This document shows positions 2,304 through 60,875 of a DNA stretch of 64,000 nucleotides, one piece after another. The notes under the pieces are model-generated. The model had not been told where the DNA came from. It searched no databases and saw only the letters and a program-made list of their open reading frames with translations. The stretch comes from Naegleria gruberi (Eukaryota): assembly GCA_000004985.1 (NCBI GenBank), contig GG738880.1; one strand, given 5' to 3'. Both the position numbers and the translations under genes were made by a program. Position 1 is the stretch's first letter; each line of letters opens with the position of its first letter.

Positions 2304-5121
2304 ATGCACTCACCAAATTCTTCAACGCTTTCCTCTTCATCAGCCATTCCCTCACCTTTACCTTCTTCCTCCAGCTCCTCTTCATCATCATTCTTCTCCT
2401 CCTCCAGCTCGGATTCCATCAAAGTCTGTGTCAGAGTACGTCCACTCAACGAAAAGGAAAGACTGAAAAACTCACAATCCGTCTGGCGAACCACCAATAA
2501 TACAACCATCTATAGTGTTTCATCACAAGTAAATAGCAATAATAATAATAATAGCAATGGTAATTCATCGAACAATAATAATAATATTGGTAGTAGTAGT
2601 GGTGGTAATTTAGGGATTAATTCAAATATGATGATTCCGATGGTTCCATCGAGTAGTGATGTTAGTTATACGTTCGATCATGTCTATGATCAGAATAGTA
2701 CTACAGATTGTATCTATAATGATATGTGTAAGCATATTGTGACCTCTTCTGTGAGAGGATATAATGGAACAATATTTGCCTATGGACAGACTTCATCTGG
2801 TAAAACATTTACGTAAGTACTTTCGATTCATAATAAGTTTCTGATAGATTAATAATGCTACTAAATTGTTCAAAAATTTGAATGTTTGTGAATATTTTGT
2901 GATTGTTAAATTCAGTATGAAGGGAACAAGAGAAATACATGGTATTATTCCACTCTCAATCAAGGATGTATTTACTACTATCAGTCAAACACAGAGTCGT
3001 AGATTTCAAATTAGAGTTTCGTATTTGGAAATTTACAATGAAGTCATTAAGGATTTATTGGATCCAGAAAATCAAAATTTAAAAATCAGAGAAGATTTTG
3101 TCAATGGAAAGGGAGTCTATGTTTCTGGAGCTAAAGAGGAAGAAGTAGCATGTATGGAAGACATGCTAAAACTCATGGAAAAGGGTGAGCATTATAGACA
3201 TTTTGGAAATACAGCCATGAATGATCAGAGCAGTCGATCCCACACCATATTTAGGATTATGATTGAGTCAATTGATGGTAGTATAGCAAAACAAATGGTC
3301 GAGGAAGAGGATTTTGATATCTATACAACAAATTCAGAAGTTCTCTTCTCAACATTGAATCTTGTGGATTTGGCTGGTTCTGAACGAGTTCTCTACACAC
3401 AGGCACAAGGAGATAGATTGAGAGAGGGTGGCCATATTAATAAGAGTTTACTCACTCTCGGTAATGTTATTGCCAAACTCAGTGAAGGAAATTCGAGCCA
3501 CATTCCATACAGAGATTCAAAACTCACAAGAATTCTCTCTAACTCTCTTGGAGGAAACTCAAAGACTGCCATCATTTGTACAATAACACCTGCCTCACAA
3601 CACTTTGAAGAAACTCACTCCACTCTCAAATTTGCCAACAGAGCAAAGAGCATCAATAATCAAGTTACAATCAATCAAATTATCAATGAAAAGGCCCTCC
3701 TCAAGAAGCTGAAACAGGAAAATCTCGATTGGAAAAACAAATTCCAAGAACGAGTTAATGGTATTGAGGATGAGTTACATAGATCAGAGAGGGAACGAGA
3801 TGAAATTGTAAAATCTTATGAAGAAAAGATTGCCCTCCTTCAAAAACAATTGGAAGAAAAGAATCAATTGGACGACACCATCTCCTCTCTCAGAAAAGCT
3901 CTCCTAGATAAGGAAAAAGATTTAGAATGGATTGAAACAGTGTCAAACAATGAAAAACAACTCTCGAGTCAATTAACACTCGAAAGAAATAGTCTCCAAC
4001 AAGAAGTTAAAAGACTTTCTGAAGAGCACTGCAATAATCTCTCCAAAGTCAAGGAAGATCATACCAAGGAAATTGAAAATCTCACTCTCCAACACAAGAC
4101 CAGTATGCAAGAATTGGTTTATCAACATGAGCTTGAAATACAGGAGCACAATCGAATGTTAACTCAACAACTCGAAGTAGACTACCAAGAGAAGCTGGAC
4201 TCTATTGTAGAAGATTTGAAATCAGAACATGAAAGAGAGAAGGAATCTCTCATCTCTGTTCATAGCCATGCCTTACAACAAGTTCAATCTTCTATCAGTG
4301 AAAGTGAAGCTTTAGAATTCCAAACAACCATTCAATCCCTTCAAGATAATATCAATGAGTTGATTTCAACAAAGGATGAATTAGAACTCAATTTGGATCA
4401 TTCCAGAAATCAAAATTCACTATTATCCAAAGAATATGAAACACTCTCCCATATGATAGAATCCCTTAAAGAACAAGTCGAAGAAAAAGACTCTATCATT
4501 TCAAATCACCAAGAGCAAATTGAGGAATACAAACGTACTTTGGAACGTGTCGATGAGGAATTGACACTTCTCAAAGAGCAACAAATTGATCAACTAGAAA
4601 TTGATCACCTCAAAGATACTGTGCAATCATTGACTGAAACTTTGGAAGAGAAAGATAAGGATATTGAAAAGTTACAATTTGATTGTGAAATGTACAAGTC
4701 AGCTGTTTCCAATCAAAATACAAATAACTTAGAAGAAATAGTTAACGAAAAGAATGCTCACATTTCAAAACTGGAACAAGAAGTAGAAATGAAAGAACGA
4801 ACATTTAAAGAGGAAATGGATGAAGCCATTGCCAGAATACGAGAACTTGAGCAAGAAAAGAATGCAATCATTGTTGGAACCACCTCTCAATTGGAACAAA
4901 TCAATAAGGTTACAGTGGATAATGAACGTCTCACCAAGGAAATTAAAGAGCTACGATCTAAAATAGAATATGGAAAGGCTAAATCCCAACAACTTATCGA
5001 GGAAAGAAAGAGAAAGGAAAATCCAAACCTCGTAGACCATCCGTACTATCCTAAAACTCCAAATTCTGACTTTAAAAAGCTCAAGATGGATGATGAAAAT
5101 AAGGAAAATAAATTTAATTAA
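2304..5121 (+). CDS. Kinesin-7 / CENP-E-like kinesin motor protein with long coiled-coil tail, 2 exons
   Basis: Exon 1 is 2304..2812; intron 2813..2915 (GTAAGT...TTCAG, phase 2); exon 2 is 2916..5121. Splicing restores the P-loop GQTSSGKTFTM|KGT. Switch I NDQSSRSHTIF and switch II LVDLAGSER are present, as is IREDFVNGKGVYVSG typical of the CENP-E family. The N-terminus is Ser-rich and the C-terminal roughly 500 aa is coiled-coil. Confidence 0.8.
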
Positions 5122-50780: not shown

Positions 50781-53700
50781 ATGCCATCCAAGAAGAAGAA
50801 GCAGCCAAAAACGCCTTCTTCCTCCTCTTCAGAAGATGAAGATCATCTCCAACACAACAACAACAACACTTCACCGCTTCCCTATGTTTCTTCTTGGTTA
50901 CCTCCTTCATTGTTGCATTCTCCGTCATCACCAACGACAAATTCATCATCACCGACTACGATTTACGCGCCAACAACGTCTCAAGGTGTTGTAGGAAAAT
51001 CAAACTCTAAGAATAAGAAGAAGAATAATCGGAATGATGATGCTGATGAGAATCATGATGGAAGAAATATTAATATTAATAATTTGAATAATTTGAATAG
51101 TAATAATAACGTTGATAATAATGATGAGAAAACACTCTCTGATATGGACGATGAGTGGAATCACATCATTGAACAATATCACTCCCTCATCAGGAATAAG
51201 CAAAATAATGAACATGAGGCTAATCATGATTTATTCAATATTATTGAAGGAAATTCGGCCACACCAAATTATGGAAGTTATGATGATCAATATAATTTAC
51301 CTTCATATGCTGATAGGAGAAAATCAATGCTCGTCTTTCCAACATCAACCATCCTCTCTTCATCACCAAATAACAACAATAATAATAATAATAAGGAGAA
51401 TGATAAGAAGAAGAAGAGAAAGTTTGCATCACTGAGGAGGAAGAATAGAAATCAACAAAATTTACCAAGTGATGAAGAAACAGAACAACAACTCCATCAT
51501 CATCACTATAATGAAACAGTGCAGCCAACAGATCCTGACTTTCCAACATTGTCCTTCTGTGATTTAATGTTAATTGGAGCTGCCACTCAACAACATCCGC
51601 ATGGATTATTGACAAGTGCCACAACAGCAACAACAACAACAACTTCTGGAAGTGTTAGCACGACTCAATCTCCTTCATTGCCGATGGGAATGAGAAATAA
51701 CATTGGAAGTAATTTGCTGGGTTATTACGATCATCATCATCATGCATTATCTTCTTCTCCAATGCTTGGTGGTTCTCCTTCTCTCTCTTCACCAAATGTG
51801 ATTGGAAAAGGTAATGGAGATTTTGGTGGTGGATTTTCACAAGTTGACAAGTCGTTGAATCTAATGCTATTTCCAAATACAGCATCCACAACTCCACTAT
51901 CACCTTCATTTCCAACAAGTACTGCGCTCAGCACTAAACCACTTTCATTGGATTTATCAAAATTAAAAGCAAAATCAGCAGCTAGTCAGGCAGCTAGTTG
52001 TCAAACACCTGAAGTTTCGGATAAGAAGAAGATTTTTAAACGAAGAGAAAGGTCTGCATCATCATTTTCATTAGGAGGCAGTAAACAACATCCAGATAGT
52101 CCAAGTCAGAGACATCACCGATTGAATAATTCAGATTCAAATTCAAATTCAAGATTACAACAAGGAATGTCATTCACAAAGTGGTCGGAACTCATTCAAA
52201 ACAATGGTGCATTTGCGAGAATTAATAACATTTCGCCCTCTTCACCTGCTCTGGGACAGAATGATGAAGATTCACAGAGTAATGGAAATGCAAATGATAT
52301 TCTTTCACATGATAGTACGGAAATTTTCGATCAGTTGGAGGATATTCTTTCCTATCAGCTGCCAATCAGCCCTAGGTATAGAACCTATTCTAAATCATCG
52401 AATACAAGGAGGGATACCTCCGAGACACTCAATGATGAAGAGCAACAACAACAGCAGCAGTCACAACAACATGATGAAACACGAACGAGTGAGGATATTA
52501 TTGGAGATGAGGAAGAGGATGAAATGGACGATCTCATAGATGGAGCCATTAGTAATTTCAATCGAGCCACTGACAGTAGCACTGAACAAGGAGATAAATC
52601 CTCTTCAAATAATCCTGTGGATTTACAATTTGCATTGATTGGAAGTCGTGGAAAGATGGCCGATTGGGTCAAAGAAAAGGAGAAGGAAAAGGAGACTCTT
52701 CCACAAAATTTGCCATCTCTTAGGGAGGGAAGATCTCCACAAGAGACTAGAAAGGGAGACCCCTCACGACAACACATTTCAAAAACTAGATTTTCATTCA
52801 CTTCACGCTCTGCAGTTAATTTGAATTCTGTTAACAATAATCAAAAATCACTTATTGAAGATATCGATTCTGAAAAATCGACATCATTTACTGAGGGAAA
52901 TTCTCCTCAATTTAGACCAAAGGGAAGAAAGAGAAGTTTAAGCCATATGATGGTTAATGCAAGTGTTTGCTTGCATTTTGCAATTGACAAGTAAGTAATT
53001 TGTTATACTTTCATTTTTTAACATTTCTAATTATTATAATACTTTCGTGTTTTTTATAATATAGTTTTAAGGGAATTGATGAATTTATCAAGGAAGAACA
53101 AGAGAAGGTCAATCTTAGAAATGAAAATAATTCAACCACTGATGATCAATCATTCTGTGTCCAGTTACATGTCTTGCACAGAGTCAAGAAATCTAACAAT
53201 ACCTATGCATGGATTTCACTCATTCACACTCAAAATGTAAACCTCCTCGATTTGGAATCATTCAACTCATCAGACAAGAGTAAAATCACATCTGATGTTG
53301 TCCATTTCGAAACTAGTGCTACCTTACCATTCAATTTTGAAAAGATTACACCACTCCTCTTTGCACTCATCAGTACACGAACAAATCAAGTGCTAGGTTC
53401 CTATGAGGGTTGTTTGGCAGAGATTTGTGGAAGTCAGCAGCTAATGATACGAAGAAAACTCATCAAGCAAAAGAAACACTTTTGTGATTTGGTAGTCAAG
53501 GCATCCATACCACCAGGAAATGAGAAACGACTCTCAGTTTTGGAAAATCTTGGAAATACCGTAAGGGAGCAACTCTCGCTGGCTCCACCTCTCGATTTAT
53601 TCAATGATATTCCCACAACAGAGTCTCCTCTCATTTCAGATTCGAGCTCTTCAGTAACTCCTGATATGAATAATGATGGTTCACTCCTGAGAAAGAAATT

Positions 53701-56138
53701 AAGAGTCGAAAGAAAGAGAAAGAAATCAACAAAAATTGAGGAAATTTATTTGGATTTTGATGAAATACAAGCCAAATTGGAAAAGAAGTACAAGGATTCT
53801 TTCCTTGTAGTGAGTCAACAATTCTACACTGATAAGAATCAATTGGGATCTTTCATTCCGCTCTACACTAGTGAAACTAATACCAAACTCACAAAAACAC
53901 CCTCCTTTGAACCATTTTCTATCAAACCTACTTTAGAATTCACCAATATCACCTTCAGATTCGAACTGTTTTATTGGGTATCAATCGACAAGCAACAATA
54001 TGACGATTTGGATGTAATGTCACCACGACAATACAAACAATCACCAATTGACGCAAAAAAATCATCAAACACCAGAACAACCACCATAGGTCACTACAGA
54101 AGATTAATTGGAGCAACAGAAGTTACCTATACTGATTTTATCAAATTCTTTGATTTACCCTCTGTTCCAACACCTGAATCGACAAGTTCTTCCTCCACTA
54201 GTAAACCTCTCAAAGGGGATAATGATCTATTGTTGGGACCATTCTTCCACATTTCTAGCTCTGGACTCACCGAAGCTACCAATAGCACAACCACACCAAG
54301 GAAAACAAGAAAATCCCTGAAAAATGTTACATTTGAATCAGAGGAAAAGTCCAACAATTCGAATAGTGGACCCCCAACGAATAGAGTTTCTCCTCTTACA
54401 ATGAAATTACTAGTCGATCGTAGAATTCACATTATCAAAGAGGAAACACTTGCTCCACAAGGAATGGATCCAGTAGAAGATGAAAATAATCCATCAGTTG
54501 TTCACAGAAGAAGAAAGGTTCTCACTGTAGTAAATGTTCAGAGTGGATCTCTCACATTCAAGAGTGTCAAGGAGAGAAAGGTCTTTATTGAAGAACAATC
54601 GGATTTGGATGTGACCTATACATTCCTTGATTATATGAAAACTGGATTGAGATTTAAATGTTACTTTGCTCTCGATTTTACCAAAGATAATACGTAAGTT
54701 TCATTTAACTTTTTAAATCTTTACAATTTAGTGAGCCGAGAAATGAAGGAAATTTACACATTGCTCCAAAAGGACAAAAATCCATCTATGAACAATGTAT
54801 TGACAGCATCAGTAAGAGAATATTCCAATATGATCCAAATATGACCGATTTCCACTTGGTTGGATTTGGAAATGATACACAGGAACCAGTTTTCAATTTG
54901 TACAGTAAGGGAGACGACCTTCTCGAGGAGGAAACTTCATCTTCTTCCATGTATTTTAGAGATGACAATGCCTCTGCAAGCTCTGAGGATAAGTCACAAA
55001 ATTACATTTACTCTGTATTATATCCAAGATATTATCCTCCTTTGAAAATTCATCAACTTTCACCAGTAAGTTTTTCACAAATTTTAAAATTTTACAATTA
55101 ACACTTGTAAAATTCTTGTAATAATTTGGAATTTAATAGATTTATCGACAATATATTTCGAGCACGGGTGGAAATTTCAAGCTCACCATGCAAGATTGTG
55201 TCAAAACTCGTCATTATGCCTTCACAGAGACAAACGTTCACAAGGGCACCAGAGATTTGACAAATGCCAATAGATTTAGCTATGATGATGGTTTGAAACA
55301 TGAGAAATTGAAACGAATGTCCTCTCCAGAATTTATTCACCTCAATTATATTGATTCTCCAAAGGTAACAACCTCTTCACTTACCCACCAAGGCAACAGT
55401 TTCTCAAGCAAATCACCAATAGTTGGCTCTTCCTCTATGGAAAGTGAAAAGAAATCAGCAAGCAAATCGAGTCTTTTCAAAAATAACATTTTCGAATCAC
55501 AAAAAGTAACCTCCAAATATGCTCCAAATGATTATTATCCAGTAATTTCTGATGTTATTGATTTGAGTTGTAATTTGAAGAATGAGGAAAGTATTGCCCA
55601 AACTCTTCTCTATCTCTACAGAGAACAGCAAATGTCAAAGATGGGTCATAGAAATTCAACCTCTTCCACACTCTCCTCTGATAGTTCTACCATGATGAAT
55701 ATTACACCAGTTCTGTACAATATTTTGGTAATCTTGATACCGAATGACTTTATTCATGTTGAGGAGACAATTTACAAATTTGTGGAGGCTTCACATAAGG
55801 CTGCTCTCTCAATTATTGTCATTGGAGTTGGAAGTGGATGTGGATTCAAAACTCACAGATCTATCAATACGAACACTGATTATGTTAGTAATAATTCTAC
55901 CTCTGGATCTGGAGGAAGAACTCTCCAATACAGAATTCAAACCATCATTCCAACAACAACTGATTTACAATATAGAGGATTGAGAGCTGCTCGTGGTTGT
56001 GTAACATTTGTAAGATTGAACGATCATGAAACTGTAAATGAGGCAGTGGAAGCAGCTTTGCAACACATTCCAAAACAAGTTTGTCGCTACATGAAGATGA
56101 AAGGTAGAGAAATATTATCATCCGGAAATAATCAATAA
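50781..56138 (+). CDS. Copine-like protein (two degenerate C2 domains + vWA domain) with a 737-aa low-complexity N-terminal exon, 4 exons (about 1723 aa)
   Basis: Exon 1 is 50781..52990 (N/S/Q/T-rich). Intron 52991..53064 (GTAAGT...ATATAG, phase 2). Exon 2 is 53065..54693 (C2-like regions; ends ...FLDYMKTGLRFKCYFALDFTKDN, the copine signature). Intron 54694..54731 (GTAAGT...TTTAG, about 38 bp). Exon 3 is 54732..55065 (...HIAPKGQKSIYEQCIDSISKRIFQYDPNMTDFHLVGFGN...). Intron 55066..55139 (GTAAGT...AATAG). Exon 4 is 55140..56138 (...ILVILIPNDFIHVEETIYKFVEASHKAALSIIVIGVGSGCGF...). The exon total of 5172 nt is in frame. Confidence 0.6.
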
Positions 56139-56444: not shown

Positions 56445-57083
56445 TCAAATTCTTCTTTCCAATATGAAATACGAAAATCCAAATGGTTTCGTTTCAATAT
56501 ACTGTAAGACTTGTTCCCAGAGTGAAAAGAAACTATCCAATGTTCTCAAATCTGGTATACTAGTAAAGGTACTAAATTGAAATATCTGTATATTCATGAA
56601 TGTGGTCATTATATGATATATCACTTTTCTTCGTTTCATATTCAAAGTAATGATTGGCAATAATTTCTTTGCAACTTGATTGACCATATCCTTTCGAGTG
56701 GCATTCAAATTGTTCAACATTGATTTTAAATATCTTTCAGTTTTAGTCATCGAATTAAGTATCCAAACATTTGAATATAAGTAAATATTCTCCAAACTTC
56801 TATATCGTGAAATTGTTTTTTTTCGTAAATAACTGCTCGCCATGTTGGCTGCCATTTCACATTCCACTTGTGGATGATCTATGTATTGATGAAACTTTAT
56901 CAAATTCCTAAAGGAAACCTCCCAAAAATTGGTATCATCATTGTCCATTATTAATCTATTCAATCTTTTACAGACACACAACAAATTCCTTCCCGAATAT
57001 GAAATCATTAAAAAATCACCAATAATATTAAAGAGAAGAATGTGATCGGGTATTCCCTTGATAATTTCTGTCATTTTTTTCAT
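56445..57083 (-). CDS. Hypothetical protein with F-box-like N-terminus
   Basis: 212-aa ORF with ATG at 57083. The N-terminal IPDHILLFNIIGDFLMISYSGRNLLCVCKRLNRLI resembles an F-box. The adjacent ORF 56197..56448 in another frame could be a further exon. Confidence 0.35.
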   Translation of the reverse strand: MKKMTEIIKGIPDHILLFNIIGDFLMISYSGRNLLCVCKRLNRLIMDNDDTNFWEVSFRNLIKFHQYIDHPQVECEMAANMASSYLRKKTISRYRSLENIYLYSNVWILNSMTKTERYLKSMLNNLNATRKDMVNQVAKKLLPIITLNMKRRKVIYHIMTTFMNIQIFQFSTFTSIPDLRTLDSFFSLWEQVLQYIETKPFGFSYFILERRI

Positions 57084-57149: not shown

Positions 57150-59573
57150 TTATTGAATTTCCTTAGCAAAGAAAGTAGCATCTGGTCTATCAGCTCCAAG
57201 TAATTTGGTGATAGATTCGAGTGGCTTAGTAGCTGCTTCAGTTGACAAGACAGACTTCAAAGATGATGAGAATTTAGACATGTCACTTCCTGACAATCCT
57301 GAGGCAAAGATGTGGGCAGCAACAATTTCAGTATAGAGTTCAGAATAGTATGGTTGGCTTTCAAGGTTGAACAATCTCTTAGAGAAGAAGGAAATGTTTG
57401 GAATCAATTGTGTGTATGGCTTGCAAAAACGTGACTCAATGGAGGAGAGAATTTCGATTGGTGTACTTTGAGAAGCATCGATTGGTTTGAAAACTTCCAA
57501 TTCGAACAGAGAGTAAACCATTTGTTGAACTAATTCTAATGGATATTGTGTTGGAGTTGTAGAAAGTTGTCTGGCATATTCTTCAGGTATTGGTTGTTTT
57601 GAACCTCTGTGTGAAAGATTTGCCAAGAGGAATTCGGTATTTTGTGGTAATCTTTCAAAAACTTTACGAACAACCTTGGACAAGAGATTAGTTTCAGAGA
57701 CAGCAGATGAACTTTGGCTGAGAATGTGGAAGAGAGCTTGACCAAAAGCACCAGACAAACTCTTGAATTGTTTGAGATTGAGTGTGTTTGAAACACTGTA
57801 GATGTGATCTCCCAAGTTCATTTGAATAACAGCACTCTTCAAGCCGTTTTCTCCAGAAATTGGATGGAGCTTAGCCTTATCAGAGGCATAAGCATCAAAA
57901 TGTTGAGTCTTTTCTCTTTCAAAGAGATCGAGATAAATGTGACCAACAACCTTACCATTTGAAACAACGTTGAGTTTCTTGATATTGAGTGGTGACCAGG
58001 TTTCAGATGGAGCCAACTTTTCTGGAACTACCTCAACACCGAAAGCTTGAGAAGCAACAGTCTTTGTTAAACCGTCCAAAACAGAGCTCAATGACATGTA
58101 GTTTTGAATATCAGATGGCAAGTAATTAACTCTAACACGGTTATAGTGGAGATTTGACAATTGCATAATATCAAAACCTGGAGTGAAAAGCTTCAAATCT
58201 TCAGCAGTTTGCTTTGACTTGTTGTAGAAACATCTCTTAAGAACTGGATCAGTCATTCTGGTAATCTTCAATTCAGACAATTTTTCAACTTCCTTCTTGA
58301 TATCGATTTGTTCCTTCAATTGACCAATAACTTTAACAAAGTCATCAACCTTTGGTACGTTATTATTGGACATGTTGACAGTAGCAATCTTCATTTCAAC
58401 AAATGATTGATATCCAAGAGTCTTGGCAAAAGCATTGGAAGCATCAATAGCGGAAGCAACCTTTGAGTTGAATTCATTATCAGCTGAACCAGTAAAGAAT
58501 TTCTTGGTAGCTTCATCAAACAAATCGGTTCTGAGACTTTCTTCAGAAACATTTGTAAGAATAGCTTCCAAATCCTTTTCCAAGTTGAGAAGAATAAACT
58601 TCTTCTTCTTTTGAACTTCCATCTTTAAAGACTTGCTGTGAGCTTCTGGAAGTTCATAAATTCTCATAGATCCTCTAACCTTAGTATTAACATGAGTTTG
58701 AATATAATCGTTCAATTCTTTAACTCTCTTTTCAAAATCTTCCTTAGCTTCAGTGAATTTTTCACGGCTAGATTCCACACCATAAATATTTCTAACTTCA
58801 TTAGCGAGTGGAGTATCCAAAACGAGTGATTGTGTGGCCTTTCCGAACTTTTCATTTGTGAGAGCACGTTGAGCAAAGAATTGTGAAAAGTTATCATGGA
58901 TTTCTTGAGCGGCAACAGCAAGGTCTTCAAATGGATGCAATTGAATAAAAGCCTTCAATGACGACAAGTAAGAGAATCGCAAATTAGTTAATTCGAGAGT
59001 ATTTCTAGAGACATCTTCTCCCTTTTCTATACTACTAACCAAATCATCAACTCTTCCTTTAGCAAGAACCAATGAATCTCTCATTGATGAAGCATCCTTG
59101 AAATGTTTCAATCCAAAATATCCGGTTTGTTCAGAGAGCTTGGAAACATCAATATTCTTGCTAGTGTTCACAAATTCAGCCAAAGATGGTGTTTTAGCCA
59201 ATTCAGCGATATATTTTCCTGTAACTTTCTTCTTTGGGTAGAGTTTTTCAATAGATGGTGGTTTTGGTTTATCGAGTTCTGAATCTTTAGAAGCTCTCTT
59301 CATGGCTAACTTTTCCTTATTTCTTTGTTCGAGAGCAGCCTTCTTTTGGTCCATTCTCTTTTGGTGTTCCTTTTGTTGATTTCTCTTTACTAAATCCTTC
59401 TTTCTACCACCGGCAACATCCTTTTTGGATCTGCTAATTGTTGATGAAGCAGCAGCATTGAAGAGGATGTGATTGGAAGTCAAGTGAGAGGTAATAGCAA
59501 CAGAATTTGAAGGAAGTGAATTTCCTAATAATGTTGTAGTCTTTGAAAGACCGTGTTTCCAGACAGAGAACAT
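57150..59573 (-). CDS. Mitochondrial intermediate peptidase (M3 family)-like protein lacking the HEXXH zinc motif (putative pseudo-peptidase), presequence-like N-terminus
   Basis: 807 aa. N-terminus MFSVWKHGLSKTTTLLGNSLPSNSVAITSHL resembles a presequence. TGYFGLKHFKDASSMRDSLVLAKGRVDDLVSSI matches the MIP N-terminal block (TGLFG.P.L..P.GF..LA). At the position of FHEMGHAMHSML the sequence reads SGAFGQALFHIL, and no HExxH occurs anywhere in the ORF. Confidence 0.5.
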   Translation of the reverse strand: MFSVWKHGLSKTTTLLGNSLPSNSVAITSHLTSNHILFNAAASSTISRSKKDVAGGRKKDLVKRNQQKEHQKRMDQKKAALEQRNKEKLAMKRASKDSELDKPKPPSIEKLYPKKKVTGKYIAELAKTPSLAEFVNTSKNIDVSKLSEQTGYFGLKHFKDASSMRDSLVLAKGRVDDLVSSIEKGEDVSRNTLELTNLRFSYLSSLKAFIQLHPFEDLAVAAQEIHDNFSQFFAQRALTNEKFGKATQSLVLDTPLANEVRNIYGVESSREKFTEAKEDFEKRVKELNDYIQTHVNTKVRGSMRIYELPEAHSKSLKMEVQKKKKFILLNLEKDLEAILTNVSEESLRTDLFDEATKKFFTGSADNEFNSKVASAIDASNAFAKTLGYQSFVEMKIATVNMSNNNVPKVDDFVKVIGQLKEQIDIKKEVEKLSELKITRMTDPVLKRCFYNKSKQTAEDLKLFTPGFDIMQLSNLHYNRVRVNYLPSDIQNYMSLSSVLDGLTKTVASQAFGVEVVPEKLAPSETWSPLNIKKLNVVSNGKVVGHIYLDLFEREKTQHFDAYASDKAKLHPISGENGLKSAVIQMNLGDHIYSVSNTLNLKQFKSLSGAFGQALFHILSQSSSAVSETNLLSKVVRKVFERLPQNTEFLLANLSHRGSKQPIPEEYARQLSTTPTQYPLELVQQMVYSLFELEVFKPIDASQSTPIEILSSIESRFCKPYTQLIPNISFFSKRLFNLESQPYYSELYTEIVAAHIFASGLSGSDMSKFSSSLKSVLSTEAATKPLESITKLLGADRPDATFFAKEIQ

Positions 59574-60110: not shown

Positions 60111-60875
60111 ATGCATCATCAATTTGATACTACAACAGAACATTCTCAACCAATTGTTCCATTGGATAATGACAATTCAATCGATCTCAAAAACAAGCAG
60201 ATCATTGATGAAGAAAAGGATGAAGCTTCTACAGCTCCAATGTGTAAAGAATTGAAGGAATTTACTCAAGAATTGGAAGATTGTTTTAAAGAAGGAGAAG
60301 GAAAAGTCAACCCGGAACATGTCAAACAAATCTTCAGAAAATATCTTGATAAGATTGACTTGAGTGATTTGGAAGCCTATTGTTTGGCTGATACAAGAGC
60401 TACCTATACTAGAAATTTAATATTTAAAAATCCATACTTTTCATTGATTGTTCTCGCATGGAATCCACAACAACACAGCTCTATTCACAGTCATGCTGGA
60501 TCGCAATGTTGGTTCAGATGTATGAGAGGACAAGTCAAGGAATGCAGATGGATGATTGACCCAACTCATGACCAATCACTCTGTCCTTCAGAACCAACAA
60601 AGGAATTTATTGCCAATGTTAATTCTATTGGTTATATTGATGATAACAATGGTGTTCACTGCATTGTGAATACACGAGATGAAATTAGTGTCACTCTCCA
60701 CTGTTATGCTCCTCCATATGATTCATGTGCATGCTACTCTGAAGAAACAGGTGAAGTCTATAGAGGAAAAGTAATGTTTGACAGTATTGGAGGTGTTATT
60801 GATACATCACATCCTTCAAAGGAATCAGTTGTAAGTAGTACAATTTCCAAAATTGAAAAATTTCTAATTATGTAA
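60111..60875 (+). CDS. Cysteine dioxygenase type I (cupin)
   Basis: 254 aa. YTRNLIFKNPYFSLIVLAWNPQQHSSIHSHAGSQCWFRCMRGQVKE...VTLHCYAPPYDSCACY matches the CDO cupin motifs (H-x-H metal site, conserved C and Y residues). Confidence 0.7.
   Translation: MHHQFDTTTEHSQPIVPLDNDNSIDLKNKQIIDEEKDEASTAPMCKELKEFTQELEDCFKEGEGKVNPEHVKQIFRKYLDKIDLSDLEAYCLADTRATYTRNLIFKNPYFSLIVLAWNPQQHSSIHSHAGSQCWFRCMRGQVKECRWMIDPTHDQSLCPSEPTKEFIANVNSIGYIDDNNGVHCIVNTRDEISVTLHCYAPPYDSCACYSEETGEVYRGKVMFDSIGGVIDTSHPSKESVVSSTISKIEKFLIM

Follow-up and report, generated by a model that had tools for sequence, protein, structure and literature searches.

A conserved and probably catalytically inactive paralogue of mitochondrial intermediate peptidase in Naegleria gruberi

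An M3A-type protein encoded by a single exon

The gene analysed here encodes a diverged relative of the mitochondrial intermediate peptidase (MIP) and lies in a 64,000-nucleotide stretch of contig GG738880.1 (the window), which is nuclear DNA of Naegleria gruberi (Heterolobosea) with a G+C content of about 35%. It is an uninterrupted open reading frame (ORF) on the minus strand at positions 57150..59573, which starts with ATG and encodes, in a single exon, 807 residues followed by a stop codon; the translation was checked. The product is 100% identical, at full coverage, to XP_002675148.1 (EFC42404.1, NAEGRDRAFT_80457), which carries only the database label 'predicted protein'. A first-pass annotation, made from the letters of the window, had read it as a MIP-like protein in which the HExxH zinc motif of M3 peptidases is replaced, and had named it a candidate pseudo-peptidase. 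We refer to it as pseudo-MIP. Its segments are listed below with their positions in the window.

57150..59573, minus strand: complete single-exon coding sequence of pseudo-MIP (ORF list; 100% match to the NCBI protein)
59430..59573, minus strand: presequence-like N-terminus, residues 1-48 (from composition; predicted local distance difference test score, pLDDT, below 50)
59214..59438, minus strand: family-specific polybasic region, residues 46-120 (from charge count)
59283-59408, minus strand: predicted long helix, residues 56-97 (AlphaFold, pLDDT about 90)
59028..59126, minus strand: MIP-type N-terminal block TGYFGLKHFKDASSMRDSLVLAKGRVDDLVSSI, residues 150-182, which lines up with the canonical MIP-like consensus 'GLFG..L..P.DF'
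57153..59150, minus strand: predicted full-length M3A two-lobed fold of the thimet oligopeptidase/neurolysin/MIP type, residues 142-807
58548..58646, minus strand: family-typical 'YELP...KKKK(F/Y)...L' segment, residues 310-342, with KKKK at residues 322-325
57915..58043, minus strand: best-conserved block, residues 511-553, in the catalytic-lobe beta-sheet (FGVE..KL.P.ETW.P..KK..V...G.IYLDLF.R)
57738..57752, minus strand: G608-A609-F610-G611-Q612 where active M3 enzymes have H-E-x-x-H, a degenerate zinc-binding motif (phmmer, MAFFT and hhalign)
57675..57677, minus strand: K633, at the position of the third zinc ligand, the Glu of 'DFVE.PS' (Glu in 61 of 63 canonical sequences)
57339..57341, minus strand: E745, at the position of the catalytic-loop Tyr ('YYSY'; equivalent to Y612 of thimet oligopeptidase and Y613 of neurolysin; Tyr in 59 of 63 canonical sequences)

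The assignment to M3 rests on orthologues, profiles and the fold, because the N. gruberi sequence itself has no PF01432 match: searched alone against Pfam, it failed to find M3 at any E up to 10. The PF01432 alignment by which the first-pass annotation had meant its motif positions to be confirmed therefore failed with this protein alone, whereas the sequence and profile alignments described below confirmed the positions. Orthologues of NAEGRDRAFT_80457 were found in N. fowleri (63% identity), in N. lovaniensis, on an ENA contig (66%) and in Willaertia magna (36%). Those of N. fowleri and N. lovaniensis match PF01432 from end to end (E 1.9e-15 and 5.6e-18), and the match at E 1.9e-15 scored 57.6 bits against a cutoff of 27 and covered positions 2-452 of the 457 in the profile. 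As a single sequence, pseudo-MIP found neurolysin at only E 0.023 (phmmer), and a profile of the 15-member family described below found it at E 5.9e-39. When the family profile was compared by hhalign with 23 canonical MIP-like sequences, the probability was 100% with E 1.5e-66 over 632 columns, and residues 142-807 of pseudo-MIP were placed on residues 68-736 of the canonical N. gruberi MIP. In this alignment TGYFGL falls on the 'GLFG' block of MIPs, where the N. gruberi MIP has STGLIGL, and LHPF falls on the conserved 'R..HP'. MAFFT and hhalign agree on the N-terminal block, so the correspondence to the MIP block that had been read by eye from the string at residues 150-182 is borne out.

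An AlphaFold model computed on a 78-sequence alignment reached a pLDDT of 83.9 and a predicted template modelling score of 0.81, superseding a first run on a 5-sequence alignment (pLDDT 47) that was unusable. The model has the two-lobed, mostly helical fold of M3A peptidases and, in structure comparison, matches neurolysin and thimet oligopeptidase. A search of the PDB with profile A1 returned chance matches only. By its profiles and its predicted fold, pseudo-MIP is a true M3A/MIP homologue. The best-conserved part of the protein is the block at residues 511-553, which holds most of the family's invariant or nearly invariant residues (F511, E524, Y547, L548 and D549) and three predicted strands (514-518, 531-538 and 541-551); the most distant homologues align best over approximately residues 487 to 560. 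This beta-sheet block is common to active M3 enzymes.

With MIP (Oct1, MIPEP; MEROPS family M3, subfamily M3A), pseudo-MIP shares the full-length fold, the 'TG(L/Y)FG' N-terminal block, the 'HP' helix and the mitochondrial location, but it lacks HExxH, the third Glu ligand and the catalytic-loop Tyr and carries an additional polybasic helix and a KKKK insertion. Thimet oligopeptidase, neurolysin and the organellar oligopeptidase, M3A peptidases with solved structures, differ from it as well: their HEFGH...E site is intact and they function as active zinc endopeptidases, and they have neither the MIP N-terminal block nor a basic extension.

Replacement of the zinc site in a wider family

The string SLSGAFGQALFH occupies residues 605-616 of pseudo-MIP, and we examined whether it stands where active M3 enzymes bind zinc. 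In a phmmer alignment with neurolysin, FHEFGHVMH lies over SGAFGQALF. The same placement was obtained with hhalign and with a MAFFT alignment of 78 sequences (63 canonical and 15 of the pseudo-MIP family): G608, A609 and Q612 fall on the His, Glu and His of the motif, and K633 falls on the third zinc ligand, a column that we take to be E503 of neurolysin from the phmmer alignment and the numbering of that enzyme. Neither HExxH nor HxxEH occurs anywhere in the 807 residues. The claims that GAFGQALF holds the HExxH position, that no HExxH is present elsewhere and that the zinc ligands are gone from a retained scaffold are all upheld by these alignments and by the complete M3A fold of the model.

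The four zinc-site residues are all kept in 61 of the 63 canonical relatives and in none of the 15 members of the pseudo-MIP family, a contrast far beyond chance; at most two of the four are kept in any one member. The residues that take their place vary. Across the family the ligand columns contain G/R/K/Q, A/T/E/K, Q/T/E/V/N and K/N/S/Q, with no conserved substitute metal-binding triad, and in 13 of the 14 other members the third-ligand column holds N, S, V, K, Q, R, G or D. The column of the catalytic-loop Tyr holds Asp or Glu in 10 of 14 family members. Closer to N. gruberi the substituted motif is itself conserved, G-x-x-G-Q being kept in all five Naegleria and Willaertia sequences. The first-pass annotation had looked to other dictyostelids for such a comparison; the comparison proved informative, but the host is not a dictyostelid, and the orthologues are those of Naegleria and Willaertia.

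Because both zinc-binding His residues, the catalytic Glu, the third-ligand Glu and the catalytic-loop Tyr are replaced, pseudo-MIP should be unable to act as a gluzincin; as far as the aligned residues tell, a zinc-dependent gluzincin mechanism is excluded. Removal of octapeptides after cleavage by the mitochondrial processing peptidase (MPP) would likewise not be expected of a protein with these residues. Several residues (E524, Y547, D549, E640, H655 and Y743) are conserved in the family. Since they are conserved in active M3 enzymes as well, they mark the core of the fold and not a new site.

Two things had escaped the first-pass annotation, namely a conserved polybasic module at the N-terminus and the wider family to which the protein belongs. 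The family was defined by searching 1.84 billion representatives exhaustively with a profile, which gave 108 matches at E up to 1e-3. The matches P0006 to P0014, all ranked above the first canonical M3 sequence, together with P0016 and P0022, are without HExxH (11 of 11), and canonical sequences of the 'TLFHEFGHALHS' type begin at E 9e-15. The resulting pseudo-MIP family has 15 members, which come from Naegleria, from Willaertia and otherwise only from Logan, ENA and JGI contigs of 27% to 51% G+C. A word-indexed search that used the family alignment as query yielded two OpdA-like proteins and the N-terminal half of the N. lovaniensis gene, and nothing else new. In several of the contig relatives the coding sequence is broken up over successive ORFs that change frame (L001:2931-5397, L002:977-3295 and L004:2454-4699). 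In these three, a presequence, a Lys-rich stretch and the G(Y/L/F)(L/F)G block are all found in the upstream pieces, and the gene callers truncated the proteins. These genes probably contain introns, and the split ORFs, being consistent with introns, indicate that the contig relatives are eukaryotic nuclear genes.

In a neighbour-joining tree with an OpdA-like outgroup, the 15 sequences were monophyletic in 90 of 100 bootstraps and nested among MIP-like sequences, although not as sister to the N. gruberi MIP; the tree is a distance tree, in which long-branch attraction is possible. Pseudo-MIP has the features of the MIP subfamily, as it carries the GLFG block, groups with MIPs over thimet oligopeptidase and OpdA, and is located in mitochondria. 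Four more M3-family proteins among the matches lack HExxH (P0055, P0054, P0041 and P0065), apparently through separate losses. One of them, P0055, is a close relative of thimet oligopeptidase and neurolysin (E 2e-86), and its motif, MGMLGQALYN, has the same G..GQ as in Naegleria. In the tree, which covers neither P0054 nor P0055, P0041 and P0065 are not part of the pseudo-MIP clade.

The N-terminal 48 residues of pseudo-MIP are rich in Ser, Thr and Asn, contain no acidic residue and are disordered in the model. The polybasic region that follows, inserted ahead of the MIP core, has 26 Lys or Arg among its 75 residues and a net charge of +16, against a net charge of -2 for the remaining 687 residues of the protein. 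N. fowleri, Willaertia, P0012 and P0022 have comparable Lys-rich N-terminal stretches, as do L001, L002 and L004 in their upstream exons, and a 'QNI(D/N)F...G(Y/L/F)(L/F)G' block comes after them. The basic N-terminal helix is common to the members whose N-terminus can be read, with the exception of the divergent P0014, and the Lys-rich stretch is absent from the canonical N. gruberi MIP. The 'YELP...KKKK' segment is conserved in Naegleria, Willaertia, P0006, P0009, P0022 and P0087. Published mitochondrial scores for pseudo-MIP are 48 with PSORT II, 82 with MultiLoc and 40 with TargetP (PMC8134430).

Expression and selection in the presence of an intact MIP

In the mitochondrial proteome of N. 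gruberi (Horvathova et al. 2021, PMC8134430, Supplementary Data 2), pseudo-MIP is represented in purified mitochondria by 45 unique peptides that cover 61.6% of the protein, and its best BLAST hit in the proteome table is an insect MIP (2e-09). Its log2 intensities rise through the fraction columns N:1510, N:1520 and N:23, with values of 25.5, 28.5 and 30.7. The protein is not listed in a second N. gruberi proteome paper. The peptide data show that pseudo-MIP is translated, abundant and enriched with mitochondria.

Comparison of coding sequences shows that it is also under purifying selection. Between N. fowleri and N. lovaniensis, the ratio of nonsynonymous to synonymous substitution rates (dN/dS) is 0.17-0.18 at an unsaturated dS of 0.33-0.36; the comparison of N. 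gruberi with N. fowleri, in which dS has reached saturation, gives 0.15. The ORF is colinear with all of the orthologues, down to that with 36% identity, and the model shows the motif helix unbroken, with a pLDDT of about 95. The first-pass annotation had raised the possibility of an undetected intron whose removal would restore HExxH; given the colinear ORF, the confidently modelled helix and the peptide coverage, such an intron is very unlikely. Because the ORF is colinear and the motif helix gapless, dN/dS is low and peptides are detected, pseudo-MIP is neither an artefact nor a dying gene. Of the suggestion that the protein is either non-catalytic or a degenerate paralogue, the part that concerns the loss of catalytic residues stands, but 'degenerate' in the sense of decaying does not agree with the low dN/dS or with the abundance of the protein. 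NAEGRDRAFT_80457 combines M3 homology, lost catalytic residues, expression, purifying selection and a substituted motif that is conserved in its orthologues, which together characterize a pseudo-peptidase.

One orthologue seems at first sight to be broken. That of N. lovaniensis (L008:3018-5482, PYSW02000028.1) is annotated as two genes, C9374_006609 (299 residues) and C9374_006608 (493 residues), as a consequence of a 1-nucleotide deletion near position 3900 of the locus, where AAG GCC is read as AAGCC. The assembly was made from long reads, and the frameshift sits in a GG run; the two halves are each in frame and conserved. It is probably an assembly or sequencing error, an explanation favored by the fact that both halves remain conserved.

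The first-pass annotation had also anticipated a second, intact MIP gene in the genome, and one was found. XP_002673512.1 (P0090) has HELGH at residues 525-529 (H525, E526 and H529), together with E554 and Y672, and matches neurolysin at E 4e-53; pseudo-MIP is 20% identical to it (BLASTP, E 8e-13). In the proteome the intact MIP is listed at 85.6 kDa with a Phytophthora MIP as its best hit (1e-116) and a log2 intensity of 27.2 (PMC8134430), and the 399 residues printed for it there are 100% identical to P0090. A word-indexed homologue search with this 399-residue fragment gave no match, and the full P0090 was recognised among the matches of the representative search. The signal of pseudo-MIP (log2 30.7) is approximately 11-fold that of the active enzyme (27.2). 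The same proteome contains a thimet-oligopeptidase-like protein (PMC8134430). It further contains, besides a canonical presequence protease (116.5 kDa, E 0), a second PreP-like protein of low abundance, XP_002682703.1 (113.9 kDa), with a best hit of only 1e-10 (PMC8134430 Supplementary Data 2), which may be another diverged or inactive peptidase paralogue.

Two genes and a further ORF neighbour pseudo-MIP in the window.

60111-60875, plus strand: cysteine dioxygenase type I gene (PF05995, E 1.7e-21)
56445-57083, minus strand: 212-residue ORF directly downstream of pseudo-MIP (no Pfam match)
50781-56138, plus strand: large multi-ORF gene ending in a copine domain (PF07002, E 8e-09)

The cysteine dioxygenase (CDO_I) gene is divergent from pseudo-MIP in all three Naegleria species, N. 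gruberi, N. fowleri and N. lovaniensis. The gene content around the orthologue in N. fowleri and N. lovaniensis is that seen in N. gruberi, except that the copine-like gene is apparently flipped relative to pseudo-MIP, and a small gene (199 residues in N. fowleri, 186 in N. lovaniensis) occupies the place of the 212-residue ORF on the opposite strand relative to pseudo-MIP.

Possible functions of pseudo-MIP

We consider it very probable that NAEGRDRAFT_80457 is a catalytically dead M3A paralogue of MIP and would serve as a non-catalytic binding or scaffold protein. Pseudo-MIP would then act without catalysis in the mitochondrial matrix, where the retained clamshell, with its best-conserved beta-sheet, would be a module for binding proteins or peptides. 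Through its polybasic helix pseudo-MIP might dock to a polyanionic partner, for which mitochondrial RNA or the mitoribosome is the most plausible candidate, and otherwise the acidic inner membrane. A role with RNA or the mitoribosome and a role as a binder of peptides or precursors (a holdase or regulator) are about equally likely, and we offer each of them tentatively. A precedent for such a fate is provided by Core 1 and Core 2 of complex III, which are inactive M16 relatives of MPP. As proposed for pseudo-MIP, these are paralogues of a presequence-processing peptidase that lost catalysis and were kept as structural components; they differ in having the M16 pitrilysin fold, not that of an M3 gluzincin, and in that their partner complex is known.

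Several points weigh against the proposal of a dead binding or scaffold protein. Its function is entirely inferred. The lack of the canonical residues, as read from the alignment, would leave some other chemistry formally possible. With respect to the ribosomal version, the size-normalised abundances of mitoribosomal proteins spread from about 20.6 to 24.4, and unrelated proteins fall within the same range. Finally, the mitochondrial ribosomal RNAs (rRNAs) of N. gruberi are not known to be reduced, and there is then no obvious need for an L1-stalk protein of the type of mL70, the kinetoplastid protein considered next, as a replacement.

One could envision that pseudo-MIP is a structural mitoribosomal or mitoribosome-associated protein, equivalent or homologous to mL70, with its basic helix bound to rRNA. 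mL70, a large-subunit protein of the kinetoplastid mitoribosome (PDB 7aih chain BM), is the only structural neighbor of the pseudo-MIP model that is not a peptidase, and kinetoplastids and Naegleria both belong to Discoba. A polybasic helical extension with a charge of +16 is typical of the extensions of ribosomal proteins, and the size-normalised intensity of pseudo-MIP (log2 intensity minus log2 kDa) is 24.2, compared with about 24.0-24.4 for uS9m, uL3m, uL23m, mL49 and uL13m. The agreement was striking with the first nine mitoribosomal proteins and became weaker with more, since their range is broad (20.6-24.4). mL70 also turns up in the profile search of PDB sequences, but the link is not significant: the 78-sequence M3 profile lists 7aih_BM at the weak E of 0.83 (11.2 bits), and with a profile made from pseudo-MIPs only it is absent from the matches up to E 10. 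Although structurally similar to the model, mL70 is shorter (457 residues) and 6% identical, and we regard the modelled likeness as a lead, not proof. P0054 and P0055 were considered as bridges to mL70, and neither matches it. The authors of the proteome filed pseudo-MIP under proteases, not translation (PMC8134430), and neither a structure nor a complexome of the N. gruberi mitoribosome was found in the searchable literature. On balance this identification is possible, albeit doubtful. A bolder form of it, in which an M3 peptidase was recruited in the Discoba ancestor as an RNA-binding structural protein of the mitoribosome and mL70 is an extremely diverged descendant, seems to us unlikely.

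Another scenario, which we hold to be no less and no more doubtful than a place in the mitoribosome, is that pseudo-MIP binds extended N-termini or octapeptide-type presequences without cleaving them, as a holdase, a sorting factor, or a competitor or regulator of active MIP. The whole two-lobed channel architecture is kept in the model with high confidence, and the best-conserved block is the beta-sheet beside the former active site. In M3 enzymes, as the structures of thimet oligopeptidase and neurolysin show, the catalytic-lobe sheet pairs with the backbone of the substrate. Pseudo-MIP shares its compartment with MIP, MPP, and Icp55-type and PreP enzymes, and exceeds the MIP signal about 11-fold. 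However, binding of peptides leaves the family-wide polybasic helix unexplained, and the position of the catalytic Tyr has been turned into a conserved acidic residue.

Far less probable than either is that pseudo-MIP is still a peptidase, or some other hydrolase, that uses non-canonical residues. E640 (the 'MLE' Glu), H655, D549 and Y743 are still conserved, as is an acidic residue at the former Tyr; however, these four residues are conserved in active M3 enzymes too, where they lie outside the catalytic set, no replacement metal-binding triad is conserved, and of the four residues of the zinc site no family member has retained more than two. As for a mis-annotation in which the true exons would restore HExxH, or a neutrally drifting pseudogene, the N. 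lovaniensis frameshift and the failure of the N. gruberi sequence to reach Pfam detection could be cited in its favor, but it is effectively refuted by 807 unbroken codons, colinear orthologues down to 36% identity, a dN/dS of 0.15-0.18, 45 peptides at 61.6% coverage, the gapless motif helix and the substitutions conserved in all five Naegleria and Willaertia sequences.

The pseudo-MIPs are dead MIP paralogues that make up a distinct subfamily, one not described before. In the searchable literature we found no paper that names NAEGRDRAFT_80457 or describes a conserved, abundant, inactive MIP paralogue. The 'additional MIP-like protein' of Andalucia was considered as a relative and set aside: in the N-termini displayed, two MIP-annotated proteins have, as judged by eye, ordinary MIP-like or thimet oligopeptidase/neurolysin-like beginnings and no Lys-rich extension. 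For Diplonema, 'three distinct intermediate peptidases' and two other M3 metallopeptidases are reported (PMC12699882).

MIP is among the few conserved presequence-processing enzymes of mitochondria, and we found no inactive relative of it described. In databases the pseudo-MIPs are labelled 'predicted protein' or 'Peptidase M3A/M3B catalytic domain-containing protein', and labelling them as proteases overstates the proteolytic repertoire of Naegleria; this applies also to N. fowleri, a pathogen in which an orthologue is present. A repurposed function is suggested by the signal of pseudo-MIP, about ten times that of the active enzyme, and by its new polybasic module. As pseudo-enzymes derived from peptidases are common, this would be only moderately surprising, unless the ribosomal link were true. 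In that event, descent of mL70 from a pseudo-MIP would trace what is so far an orphan, 'lineage-specific' ribosomal protein back to an enzyme, and would show the stepwise conversion of a presequence-processing enzyme into a component of the ribosome.

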